From contig JBDRKL010000012.1 in NCBI GenBank assembly GCA_043814055.1, forward strand, positions 1 through 64,000: a stretch of 64,000 nucleotides of DNA, written 5' to 3'. Shown here one piece after another: positions 3,560-37,868 of the stretch. The stretch is from an archaeon (GTDB lineage: Archaea; Undinarchaeota; Undinarchaeia; Undinarchaeales; JBDRKL01). Made by a program: the position numbers and the translations under genes. How positions within the stretch are numbered: position 1 is the first letter of the stretch; the number at the start of each line of letters is the position of its first letter. The notes beneath the pieces are model-generated. The model was not told where the DNA came from, did no database searches, and was given only the letters and a program-made list of their open reading frames with translations.

Positions 3560-3566
3560 AAAATAA

Positions 3567-3869
3567 CGAGCGAAGCTCCGAATTGCGAAGCAATTCGTTT
3601 TTGATCAAACTCCAGACGCGCGAAGCGCGTTGGCCTCGGACGCTTTGTGTCCGACATTTTTCACAAATAAAAAGTTTGCGTCGAGCGAAGCGAGATTTTT
3701 GGTCAAGCTTTTTGCACGAGCGATAGCGAGTCTTTTTGATCACTCCGCCTGCTCGCGGAGGTAGAGCGGAGGCATTCGCCTTCGGCGAAGCCTCTATATA
3801 ATTTAGCATACGAGCGAAGCGAGTTTTTTGATCAAACTTTTTGGATAAATATCACCAATAAAAAGTTTG
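3567..3869. repeat. tandem cluster of about four family-A hairpin repeat units (CGAGCGAAGCGAG...TTTTTGRTCAARC-T5...A5G(G/T)TTG)
   Basis: CGAGCG(A/AT)AGC recurs near 3567, 3682, 3717 and 3811, each followed by TTTTTG(A/G)TCA. Inverted repeat CAAACTTTTT...AAAAAGTTTG ends 1 nt from the RNase P RNA 3' end. Confidence 0.85.
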
Positions 3870-3870
3870 T

Positions 3871-4207
3871 GCCGGAGTCAGTCGTAAATCTTCTTCTGTT
3901 TGTGCACTCTGAATTTTTGAGGTTCAGTGTGCCCGCGGTGAAGCGGGTGACGGCATTTTACTAAGCACCATACCGGCTTTCTCATCAGCGGTCATTGAAA
4001 GCACATTTGGCTTGCATCCATGCAGGCACTGTTCGTTTCATCCAAGCCGTTAGATCTCTGCTTTTCAGCTTCATGGCGTATAAACGGTGTGGTTCGTTTC
4101 TGTGACAGCACCAAACCCTCTCAGGCTTTCCATTGCTGGCTACACTGCTGTGGATGGAAGATTTTCCTCAGCCGCAAAGCGGCCGTAAGCCGTCCACTAA
4201 CTCCGGC
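3871..4207 (-). ncRNA. rnpB: RNase P RNA
   Basis: P1 termini GCCGGAGT.../...ACTCCGGC. Conserved blocks GAGGAAA, ACAGAAAC, TGAAAC, GCAAG and AACAGAA occur in the correct order. Confidence 0.9.
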
Positions 4208-18268: not shown

Positions 18269-18318
18269 GGAGTAGGATAAAGGACAGAAGTATTTAAGGG
18301 TTTTTAAGTGAGAAGAAA

Positions 18319-18393
18319 TGCCCCAGCCGGGATTCGAACCCGAGTCTCCGCCTTGAAAGGGCGGAATGATTGGCCGGACTACACCACCGGGGC
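18319..18393 (-). tRNA. tRNA-Glu(TTC)
   Basis: Cloverleaf, CCGCC-CT TTC AA-GGCGG. Confidence 0.97.
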
Positions 18394-18411
18394 AGGTTTT
18401 TACCAATGTGC

Positions 18412-18576
18412 ACCGAGATACAAAGCTTTTTTCGTCAACGTTTTTGCGAAGCAAAAAGGTTGGACTTCACACCACCGGGGCAACTTTATGTGCGCCAGGC
18501 AATGTACTTTTCTTTTGGTCAAGCTTTTCTTCGTAAAGAAAAGATTGCCGTTGAGTACACCACCGGGGCAACTTTA
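18412..18576 (-). repeat. two extra copies of the tRNA-Glu 5' end, each followed by a family-A unit
   Basis: ACACCACCGGGGCA at 18381, 18469 and 18557, with TTTT(G/C)GTCAA...AAAAG(G/A)TTG units between. Confidence 0.85.
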
Positions 18577-18629
18577 AGCTATAGGGAGTATGCATTAACG
18601 AATTTAAAGGTTGCTATTTAGTTCAACTT

Positions 18630-18693
18630 GCTTGGTAGTTCCGTAGCATCACAAATGTAATGCGGAACCGCGTGTCAACTTCGCGAGAAGTTG
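18630..18693 (+). repeat. family-B repeat at the 3' end of tRNA-Ile
   Basis: GCTTGGTAGTTCCGTAGCATCACAAATGTAATGCGGAAC...TGTCAACTTCGCGAGAAGTTG. Confidence 0.75.
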
Positions 18694-18696
18694 TAA

Positions 18697-18808
18697 TGGG
18701 CCCGTCGTGATTCGAACACGAGACCTCACGCTTTCGCAAGCGTGCCCGCATTTTGTGCGGAACACAGCCATATAAGGCGTGCGCTCCACCAGGCTGAGCT
18801 ACGGGCCC
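18697..18808 (-). tRNA. tRNA-Ile(TAT) with 38-nt intron at 37/38 (18733-18770)
   Basis: GGGCCCG acceptor stem, CACGC-CT TAT A|intron|A-GCGTG, T arm TCGTG-TTCGAAT-CACGA, discriminator A. Confidence 0.9.
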
Positions 18809-18944
18809 AAACTTTTATTTAGCCTATGGTTTTGGTTTCCGATGAACTGACCCGATAAGGCCGCAGCATCACCAAAGTGATGCGGCCTAACGCCCCTCCG
18901 CCGCTGTGCGGAGAGCTCCACGGGCCCAAACTTTTATTTAGCCT
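18801..18944. repeat. 25-bp direct duplication (ileS stop plus tRNA-Ile 5' end) enclosing a family-B hairpin
   Basis: ACGGGCCCAAACTTTTATTTAGCCT at 18801-18825 and 18920-18944; GGCCGCAGCATCACCAAAGTGATGCGGCC between them. Confidence 0.85.
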
Positions 18945-37650: not shown

Positions 37651-37805
37651 AAAAAATGGCCCGGGTAGTTCATTGGCAACCTTTTTCTTTTCACAAAAGA
37701 AAAAGCTCGAACGCGCACAGCGCGTTGAGCAACTCGCTGTCGCGAGTTTGTTTGACCAAAAAGAAAACTTCGGACCGATTTGCGAAAAAAATGGCCCGGG
37801 TAGTT
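37651..37805 (+). repeat. 20-bp direct duplication of the tRNA-His 5' end enclosing a family-A unit
   Basis: AAAAAATGGCCCGGGTAGTT at 37651-37670 and 37786-37805; CAACCTTTTT...TTTGACCAAAAAG between them. Confidence 0.87.
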
Positions 37806-37868
37806 TAGTGGTTAGAATTGGAGACTGTGGATCTTCAGACGCGAGTTCAATTCCCGCCCTGGGCCCCA
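37793..37868 (+). tRNA. tRNA-His(GTG), G-1 and CCA encoded
   Basis: GGAGA-CT GTG GA-TCTTC; G-1 opposite C73. Confidence 0.93.

Follow-up and report, generated by a model that had tools for sequence, protein, structure and literature searches.

How did the start of one tRNA gene come to stand three times in a row, twice upstream of the single intact copy, and from where is that gene expressed today? The question is raised by the tRNA-Glu(UUC) locus on the minus strand of contig JBDRKL010000012.1 (assembly GCA_043814055.1), an undinarchaeal contig of which 64,000 nt, referred to here as the window, were analyzed. The sequence GCCCCGGTGGTGT, which in the Rfam alignment comprises the acceptor 5' strand (positions 1-7), U8, G9 and the 5' strand of the D-stem (positions 10-13), was found exactly three times in the window, every copy being on the minus strand. 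Chance would provide 0.04 matches, and none of 100 shuffles contained three or more. One copy opens the gene, which was called by ARAGORN as tRNA-Glu (ttc) at 18318-18394, and a middle and an outer copy lie upstream of it, with start-to-start distances of 88 and 88 nt. The two upstream copies have the exact 20-mer TAAAGTTGCCCCGGTGGTGT (tRNA strand; 18469-18488 and 18557-18576) in common and share only 14-15 nt with the true gene; the common stretch runs from -7 to +13 in the outer pair and only from -1 to +13 in the inner pair. A hairpin of repeat family A follows each extra copy on the same strand, and TTTAAA is present at 18603-18608, 34 nt from the outer copy. A first-pass annotation, made from the letters alone, had pointed to the three copies, to the 20 bp of shared sequence including upstream nucleotides, to the family-A units and to the TTTAAA before the outermost fragment, and all of these were recovered at the positions given here and in Table 1.

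The triplication is confirmed as real. An assembly artefact is unlikely because the 88-nt units are only ~68% alike, with several gaps and with exact repeats of 14-20 nt, and because a like architecture was found in independently assembled relatives (L013, L014 and L015). As nearest relatives, 12 genomes of the same order were compared, and 30 other genomes were searched, none of the same family. The explanation considered best has, taken as a whole, an even chance of being right: two cassette duplications, arising from a process that acts throughout the genome and in its relatives and copies by template switching, would have left a gene expressed through a long leader composed of self-folding modules. 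The two extra 5' ends would be the orphaned halves of two successive target duplications. In each event, the initial 13-17 bp of the tRNA-Glu(UUC) gene would have received a copied cassette with a family-A hairpin, the duplicated stretch starting upstream of +1 (-7 to +13 in one event and -1 to +13 in the other); given such a start, the right-hand copy would have regenerated the complete gene and the left-hand copy would have been left behind. More generally, the process would set hairpin cassettes, each flanked by direct repeats of 13 to ~86 bp, at gene ends, and the survivors would be only those insertions whose duplication covers the gene end. Two separate insertions of related cassettes, in either order, have probably taken place, since the outer and inner modules (O and M) are homologous yet not each other's nearest relatives, since their brackets differ (20 vs 14 nt) and since the outer and middle copies have identical leaders (TAAAGTT), different from that of the true gene.

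Table 1. Features of the tRNA-Glu(UUC) locus and its upstream neighbourhood, in window coordinates.
Feature	Position	Strand	Basis or remark
True 5' core (tRNA positions 1-13)	18381-18393	-	Exact match; positions from the Rfam (cmscan) alignment
Middle 5' core copy	18469-18481	-	Exact match to GCCCCGGTGGTGT
Outer 5' core copy	18557-18569	-	Exact match to GCCCCGGTGGTGT
Intact tRNA-Glu(UUC) gene	18319-18393	-	Rfam tRNA, 55.9 bits, model 1-71 of 71
Leader TAAAGTT before the outer copy	18570-18576	-	Recurs at 18482-18488 before the middle copy (20-nt exact repeat)
Inner module M, 88 nt	18394-18481	-	Core copy, GAAGTC, A hairpin, A-rich tract, pairing strand, 15-nt spacer
Family-A hairpin of module M (CAACCTTTTTGCTTCGCAAAAACGTTG + ACGAAAAA)	18427-18462	-	Family-A scan
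Strand of module M pairing with its own 5' core	18410-18426	-	Minimum free energy (MFE) fold of the isolated unit, unit positions 56-72
Weak TATA-like TTTGTATC	18417-18424	-	Inside the pairing strand of module M; 2 mismatches, centred at -27.5
Outer module O, 88 nt	18482-18569	-	Core copy, ACTCAACGG, A hairpin, TTGACCAAAAGAAAAG, pairing strand, spacer ACATAAAGTT
Family-A hairpin of module O (CAATCTTTTCTTTACGAAGAAAAGCTTG + ACCAAAAG)	18511-18547	-	Repeat and family-A scans
Strand AGTACATTGCCTGGCGC of module O pairing with its own 5' core	18492-18508	-	MFE fold of the isolated unit, unit positions 62-78
TATA-box candidate TTTAAATT	18601-18608	-	1 mismatch to TTTAWATA; centred 35.5 nt upstream of the outermost copy
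R-type two-hairpin element between tRNA-Ile and the promoter	18612-18696	+	Hairpins 18676-18693 and 18638-18669; families D1/D3
Upstream neighbour: intron-containing tRNA, anticodon UAU (Ile)	18697-18808	-	Rfam 53.7 bits; anticodon loop CUUAUA

The cassettes belong to a dispersed family. A family-A unit reads CAAMCTTTTT, a variable inner part, AAAAAGYTTG and then AYCAAAAA, and 29 such units were found by scanning the 0.98-Mb genome. The exact right-end motif AAAAGYTTGAYCAAAA occurs in 21 copies here, in 4, 1 and 1 copies in three relatives and in none of 13 others (16 of the phylum); a reversed-pattern control gave 0 matches in this genome and 0-1 across genomes. Modules O and M were found to be homologous, with an alignment score of 14.5 vs 5.1 +/- 2.1 in shuffles, of which 0/1000 scored as high. 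The closest relative of module O is the unit upstream of the tRNA-Glu(CUC) gene of the same genome (83% over 58 nt), and the hairpin of module M is matched most closely by a copy in the tRNA-Val(UAC) intron (contig C9, 50733-50767; 91% over 35 nt). Family-A units directly follow the 3' ends of tRNA genes and of the gene for RNase P RNA; others are placed behind the orphan 5' copies of tRNA-Glu(UUC), tRNA-Glu(CUC) and tRNA-His. They also open the introns of tRNA-Met, tRNA-Gly(GCC) and tRNA-Val(UAC), each of which is the sole gene with its anticodon among the calls. All 16 of the 16 units within 250 nt of a tRNA lie on the strand of that tRNA. Further families in such constructions are a CTCCGC...GCGGAG hairpin and a GAGGC...GCCTC hairpin, and the R element, which consists of two hairpins, adjoins the 5' end of at least 7 tRNAs and matched at least 10 other copies by BLAST, the majority of which adjoin tRNA 5' ends.

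Gene ends were found to be duplicated across the genome. Terminal 12-mers of 40 tRNAs called by ARAGORN (two of them dubious) were searched with at most one mismatch within 700 nt. The 5' end was repeated for 6/40 calls (7 extra copies, all upstream and in direct orientation) and the 3' end for 4/40 (4 extra copies, all downstream and in direct orientation), and none of the 11 copies lay on the wrong side or on the opposite strand. Two further 5' cases, in which the tRNA part is only 8 nt long, are a 25-nt repeat at tRNA-Ile(UAU) and a 14-nt repeat at tRNA-Ala(CGC). Similarly, 13 of the 29 family-A units were bracketed by exact direct repeats of at least 13 nt within 170 nt, compared with 33 of 3000 random positions. 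The exact brackets measure 13, 14, 14, 15, 17, 18, 19, 20, 20, 22, 25 and 34 nt, and one diverged bracket measures ~86 nt. Four bracketed units lie far from any tRNA, at protein-coding genes: the first duplicates ATG and four codons of an L37e-like ribosomal-protein gene (14 nt), the second a stop-codon region (15 nt), the third 34 nt of the tail of an open reading frame (ORF), with the last residues altered, and the fourth is the diverged one (~86 nt), at a gene 3' end. At the L37e-like gene, the duplicated start lies 115 nt upstream, with a family-A hairpin cassette between the copies (C10:141171-141299). The association of a cassette with a duplicated gene end is thus a general process, neither 5'-specific nor tRNA-specific, and common to the cases is that the duplication spans a gene end and that a complete gene is regenerated on one side. 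The duplications at 3' ends and at protein-gene ends argue that no tRNA-targeting integrative element is involved, and the earlier impression that a 5'-end duplication is unusual was not borne out, 3' ends being duplicated about as often.

The neighbouring tRNA-Ile(UAU) gene, which ARAGORN miscalled as Ser(cga), carries a perfect 25-nt duplication of its own (18801-18825 and 18920-18944) covering the tail of the isoleucyl-tRNA synthetase ORF and nucleotides 1-8 of the tRNA; the repeats enclose a 94-nt two-hairpin cassette (18801-18944). The same cassette family was also found after GGGCCCGT, upstream of tRNA-Ala(CGC) (C10 78524-78691), within another bracket. At tRNA-His(GUG) (window 37651-37806), a 20-nt repeat composed of AAAAAATG and the first 12-13 nt of the gene recurs 135 nt upstream, a family-A hairpin and a 44-nt double hairpin lie between the copies, and a good TATA box, TTTAAAGA, is centred 34.5 nt upstream of the outer copy. 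Perfect tandems of a family-A unit plus part of the tRNA 3' end are present in the trailers of tRNA-Thr(UGU) (67 nt x3, C10:138484-138650) and tRNA-Thr(CGU) (56 nt x2, C8:32625-32724). The tRNA introns beginning with a family-A unit and T5 are located at C12:152975-153083 (Met(CAU), with the TATA-like AATTAAAAAT ~27 nt before the 3' exon), C4:126284-126390 (Gly(GCC)) and C9:50735-50806 (Val(UAC)). At least four hairpin cassettes (two of family A, one GAGGC/GCCTC and one CTCCGC/GCGGAG) are found at 3560-3870 of the window, after the RNase P RNA gene (3873-4205, minus strand). Additionally, doubt attaches to the ARAGORN call 'tRNA-Pyl(cta)' with a 95-nt intron (C12:115016-115240): the 17-mer GTAGCCTAGTCTGGATA of its D-arm is found again 201 nt downstream, which points to either two neighbouring Arg-like tRNA genes or another end duplication.

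As to the copying itself, replication or repair would have switched templates (copy-choice) at hairpin-prone DNA, with no dedicated staggered-cut enzyme. Template switching is inferred by exclusion, because the bracket length is variable and because a Y1 transposase, an integrase, Cas1 and a reverse transcriptase were undetected; an unknown or virus-borne enzyme is possible. Profile searches of the genome, which is 82% complete, did not find Y1_Tnp, Cas1 or RVT_1, and DDE transposase families were not searched. No tyrosine recombinase (Phage_integrase, even of the Xer type) was found at E values up to 0.01 in this 82%-complete genome, and 14/14 control genomes matched. The zinc ribbon of Cas12f/TnpB gave nothing above the cut-off, with 16.5 bits in a 638-aa frame vs a cut-off of 26.3 bits. 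Junction overlaps of 1-5 nt were seen by eye only, namely C/CAACC at the L37e-like gene and the short overlap of the D-arm CAATC with CAAYC of the family-A unit. The wider proposition, that Undinarchaeota host a transposase-free, hairpin-triggered copy-choice process with target duplications of 13 to ~90 bp, and that self-closing RNA modules are selected or built in pre-tRNA leaders, is for the present doubtful.

Expression today is the second half of the question. In archaea, the centre of the TATA box lies ~26 nt before the transcription start site (TSS). In 4 of the 8 5' events (tRNA-Glu(UUC), His, Tyr and Ser(UGA)), a TATA sequence with at most one mismatch was found 32.5-35.5 nt upstream of the outermost copy, and in 0 of the 8 upstream of the true gene, the chance of such a match being 3.3% per interval searched. 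Undisturbed tRNA genes of this genome have TATA matches at similar distances. Since the only good TATA lies before the outermost copy, at the normal tRNA distance, a TSS near 18578-18580 with a leader of ~185 nt is plausible from the sequence, in agreement with the first-pass annotation, which had placed the TSS near 18570-18580. Transcription would most likely still begin from the old promoter near that site and run through both modules, and the resulting leader would be removed by RNase P cleavage at 18393/18394; the RNase P RNA gene is present in the genome. The family-A units in the introns of sole-anticodon tRNA genes imply that RNA polymerase must be able to pass such units. Of the first-pass reading, two insertions and a long leader, the first part is therefore upheld by the different brackets and the different closest relatives, and the second is only plausible.

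A long leader carrying two decoy acceptor strands raises the matter of folding. In all 8 of the 8 units folded alone, the first 18 nt were found to pair with the last 40 nt through 8-16 pairs. The isolated unit O has 15 closing pairs, including 3 G.U, and the isolated unit M has 16, including 6 G.U (MFE folds); in 6/8 units the more stable fold is that of the sense strand rather than the antisense. In unit O, GCCCCGG finds its best duplex partner in CCUGGCGCA, 9 nt from the unit end. Over 15 units, the best partner of the 7-nt acceptor strand was located 5-20 nt from the unit end in 9, vs 2.8 expected (P 3.6e-4), and in 6/12 (P 0.018) when the G003/G007 homologues were left aside, the 5-20-nt interval having been chosen post hoc in both counts. 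Each module may therefore be pictured as folding on itself, with the tRNA-like 5' strand paired to the 3' strand of the module and the family-A hairpin as a cap, and such self-folding would keep the decoy acceptor strands off the real one. The pairing strand may have arisen by inverted copying or may be kept by selection to mask the decoy, or it may be the residue of a tRNA 3' acceptor strand, as in the gutted-gene rival below; sequestration at the RNA level is favoured because partners occur only where transcription of the decoy precedes that of the real 5' strand.

Several observations weigh against this explanation. Copy number, TSS and leader all derive from a single assembly, and the equal spacing of 88 and 88 nt would be a coincidence if the two events were independent. 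Template switching is argued only from variable brackets and missing enzymes, in a genome that is incomplete. Possible archaeal termination signals are present in both modules (TTTTCTTT in unit O and TTTTT in unit M), and TTTGTATC, with two mismatches, is centred 27.5 nt upstream of the true gene; a match of this quality has a 28% chance per interval, and an own promoter is possible. When the 262-nt precursor was folded, the 3' acceptor strand paired not with the true core but with a decoy, the outer one in the MFE structure and the middle one in the centroid, so that a long leader would risk misfolding. The pairing strand was absent from the tRNA-Glu(CUC), His and Tyr units, a convincing 5'-acceptor-like partner was found in none of the four 3' events examined, the protein-gene events have no counterpart of it, and duplex energies alone were not significant in most units when compared with shuffles. 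Additionally, the O-type junction also occurs in a genus (g4) of another family, at both tRNA-Glu isoacceptors, a distribution more in keeping with a module that is old, conserved or repeatedly converted than with a neutral insertion of recent date.

The strongest rival, held to be possible rather than probable, regards the modules as dead relics: the gene would have its own promoter in the A-rich/TTTGTATC region of module M, with a start only a few nt upstream of 18393, and transcripts from the outer promoter would end at the T-runs of the hairpins. The combination of GAAAAAAG with TTTGTATC at -27.5, the T5 in module M and T4CT3 in module O, and the misfolding of the long leader in silico all agree with it, as does the position of family-A units directly 3' of tRNAs and of RNase P RNA, which is terminator-like, together with the shared strand of the 16/16 tRNA-near units. 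Nevertheless, the TATA match is weak, as its 28% chance indicates, and it overlaps the strand that pairs with the core of M; the tRNA-Glu(CUC), His, Ser(UGA), Asn, Ile and Ala(CGC) genes lack a TATA with two or fewer mismatches upstream of the true gene; and the family-A units in three tRNA introns must be transcribed through. The long-leader reading was placed somewhat above that of an own promoter.

Another origin, considered unlikely, starts from two or three tRNA-Glu genes formerly arranged in tandem at the site, of which the upstream copies were gutted, the interior (~18-65) being replaced by a family-A cassette and both acceptor strands being kept, so that the remnants would be tRNA-sized mini-genes. 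Without their spacers the units measure 79 and 73 nt, vs 75 nt for the tRNA; the terminus of unit O, CCTGGCGCA, can be compared with the tRNA 3' end CTGGGGCA; the similarity of O to the tRNA reaches about position 26 (81% over 37 nt); and the closing helices resemble extended acceptor stems. Among the relatives, L026 and L027 have terminal duplications at tRNA-Gln and tRNA-Pro with an identical 35-nt hairpin cassette, tRNA positions 1-12/20 at the left and a perfect 7-8-nt complement at the right, and in L014 a real tRNA-Glu has a family-A cassette in its intron. The interiors of the units, however, showed no residual similarity to the tRNA in global alignments (P 0.97 and 0.74), the 3' 17 nt of O were not significantly tRNA-like (P 0.41; P 0.039 for M), and neither unit matched the Rfam tRNA model at E values up to 10. 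The units do have a closing helix, but the sequence of its 3' strand shows no significant similarity to the tRNA 3' end; the pairing strand also complements positions 8-16, which the 3' region of the real tRNA does not. Since the 3' and protein-gene events have no partner strand, gutted genes cannot be the general model.

A conserved functional leader module, that is, an RNA element of tRNA-Glu genes selected for example for processing by RNase P/RNase Z or for folding, was judged rather unlikely. The comparison of relatives bears on it from both sides. Module O is homologous to units of L013, L014 and L015 and to the tRNA-Glu(CUC) unit of the same genome, the junction in each being the core followed by ACYCAACGGCA and the hairpin, so that the O-type unit occurs in two families and at both Glu isoacceptors. 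L013 has two identical 106-nt modules at tRNA-Glu(CUC), L014 one module at tRNA-Glu(UUC), and L015 a 5' duplication at tRNA-Glu(CUC); a terminal duplication was also found at the tRNA-Asn of L032. Among the pairs of the closing helices are 2-6 G.U, a kind that can form in the sense RNA alone; sense folding beats antisense folding in 6/8 units, and in the tRNA-Pro unit of L027 an outer core with T5 faces a partner with the matching A. The sharing of the O-type unit and these features of the helices favour selection on the RNA. Against it, 5' duplications were found at only 3/16 tRNA-Glu loci of relatives, all in one genus; the module is absent from L016, the ortholog of L014 in the same genus, which has ~200 nt of other low-complexity sequence in place of a clean empty site; and duplex energies are mostly not significant. 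In public representative genomes, the junction CCGGTGGTGTACYCAACGGCA was found in 7 stretches, of which 3 (4 matches) lie on contigs titled Candidatus Undinarchaeales/Undinarchaeota and 4 are chance bacterial matches; in metagenome contigs there were 2 matches, both due to chance and in GC-rich non-tRNA DNA. The tRNA-Ile(UAU) and tRNA-Glu(UUC) genes are 2 nt apart in family f5 (L023-L025) and 303 nt apart in the window, where the spacer has hairpin elements throughout. This suggests that the whole spacer could be secondary, and the pair may be an old co-transcribed unit.

The regular spacing invites a further alternative, regarded as quite improbable, in which one insertion was followed by a local tandem duplication through unequal crossing-over between the cores and then by divergence. 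A period of exactly 88/88, the homology of O and M and the perfect tandem modules elsewhere (106 nt x2 in L013, 67 nt x3 at tRNA-Thr(UGU) and 56 nt x2 at tRNA-Thr(CGU)) are in its favour. Such a duplication predicts like leaders at the middle and true cores, but TAAAGTT was found to be shared by the outer and middle cores, the true gene having TAAAAACCT. Moreover, O is nearer to the tRNA-Glu(CUC) unit, and the hairpin of M nearer to the tRNA-Val intron copy, than they are to each other, and the alignment of O with M requires several indels.

Partial tRNA genes beside full ones are the classic scar of integrative elements, and decayed attachment-site (att) remnants of integrase-borne elements once resident in the tRNA gene were accordingly considered, and found very improbable. 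The duplication of attL/attR by tyrosine recombinases is described as the source of such partial genes (Reiter 1989 and Williams 2002, in PMC9897764), and a precedent reported there is that of the Thermococcaceae, in which 44-bp repeats flank elements of 9-23 kb. The likeness is that a direct repeat includes part of a tRNA gene and one copy completes the gene. Here, however, the intervening DNA is only 68-75 nt of a multi-copy hairpin repeat instead of kilobases, and no integrase was found; the duplicated pieces are 13-25 nt long, come from either gene end and have counterparts at protein-gene ends; and one cassette family is accompanied by different cores at different genes (Ile vs Ala; Gln vs Pro). 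Since brackets specific to the locus surround the same cassette family, an att site borne by the element is ruled out, and integrase-mediated insertion was rejected on the size of the insert, the absence of a recombinase match in the 82%-complete genome and the several cores per cassette family. Orphan tRNA starts and ends and duplicated start codons in these genomes should likewise not be annotated as scars of integrative elements. The least credible alternative is an artefact of metagenome assembly, suggested by the 14-contig draft and by a contig that ends in a perfect 90-nt tandem of a tRNA-Met 3' module (C13 47429-47608) and opposed by the dissimilarity of the units and by the like architecture in other assemblies. 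The C13 tandem matches the end of contig C12 in reverse (C12:153103-153209); the assembly seems to break at such repeats, and the copy number at the C13 and C12 ends is therefore uncertain.

If the proposed process holds, cassettes can land within the ends of essential genes without destroying them; selfish repeats would then have a new means of spreading in a minimal genome, and inserts bearing terminators and promoters could in this manner enter tRNA leaders, introns and perhaps split tRNA genes. DPANN genomes have almost no spare DNA, yet a repeat family has multiplied here by sitting on gene ends and regenerating them. Should enzyme-free template switching be responsible, duplicated gene ends, long structured tRNA leaders and tRNA introns filled with cassettes would have a general source that has been overlooked; should an enzyme act instead, it would be an unknown one whose target duplications vary and are longer than usual. 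The literature searched on Undinarchaeota and DPANN yielded no account of such cassettes, the supplements of the Undinarchaeota papers not being covered, and no report was found in which template switching recurrently spreads repeats to the ends of genes.

Other known systems share some of these features. Two tRNA-based candidates were set aside. In Nanoarchaeum equitans, also of the DPANN, split tRNA genes include those of tRNA-Glu and tRNA-His, and their 5' halves, which extend to position 37, are functionally required; a split gene was ruled out at the present locus, the pieces being 13-17 nt long and followed by an intact gene. A tRNA pseudogene was likewise rejected, as only positions 1 to ~26 are tRNA-like, the interiors gave the P values of 0.97 and 0.74 mentioned above, and no Rfam match was obtained. 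REP/BIME/REPIN repeats and miniature inverted-repeat transposable elements (MITEs) resemble the cassettes in being short, multi-copy, non-coding hairpin repeats that are intergenic and lineage-specific; nested insertions are found here as well. The 29 family-A units are multi-copy extragenic palindromic hairpins like those that characterize REP/REPIN-RAYT systems, in which respect the difference is that no RAYT/Y1 transposase was found in this genome. REPs are not known to make a target duplication. MITEs make short, fixed target duplications of 2-10 bp, and the variable brackets of 13 to ~86 bp seen here are unlike those of MITE or insertion-sequence (IS) transposition. Integration by casposons, which are reported to prefer tRNA gene ends (PMC5137440), or by Cas1 is alike in its long target duplication and in the regular layout of repeat, insert and repeat next to a promoter; it is unlike in that no Cas1 was found here and the duplication length is not fixed. 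A CRISPR-like array was rejected, the two 'spacers' being homologous to each other and to a dispersed family and therefore not unique.

Further parallels are rearrangements by template switching, as described for short-range switching during replication (PMC7954356) and for inverted triplications and origin-dependent inverted-repeat amplification (ODIRA) (PMC4689423). In the events reported in these sources no dedicated enzyme is needed, as is proposed here; in both, junctions lie at hairpin-prone sequence and the duplication length varies. Short inverted copies are also possible in such events, and the order of core, pairing strand and core at the tRNA-Glu(UUC) gene is direct, inverted and direct. 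The difference is that the events described there copy nearby sequence, whereas a cassette of a dispersed family stands at the junction here. The triplicated tRNA start belongs with the hairpin-repeat and gene-end duplications, for which the copying mechanism is a proposed one, and it differs from those template-switch rearrangements in the dispersed origin of what was copied.

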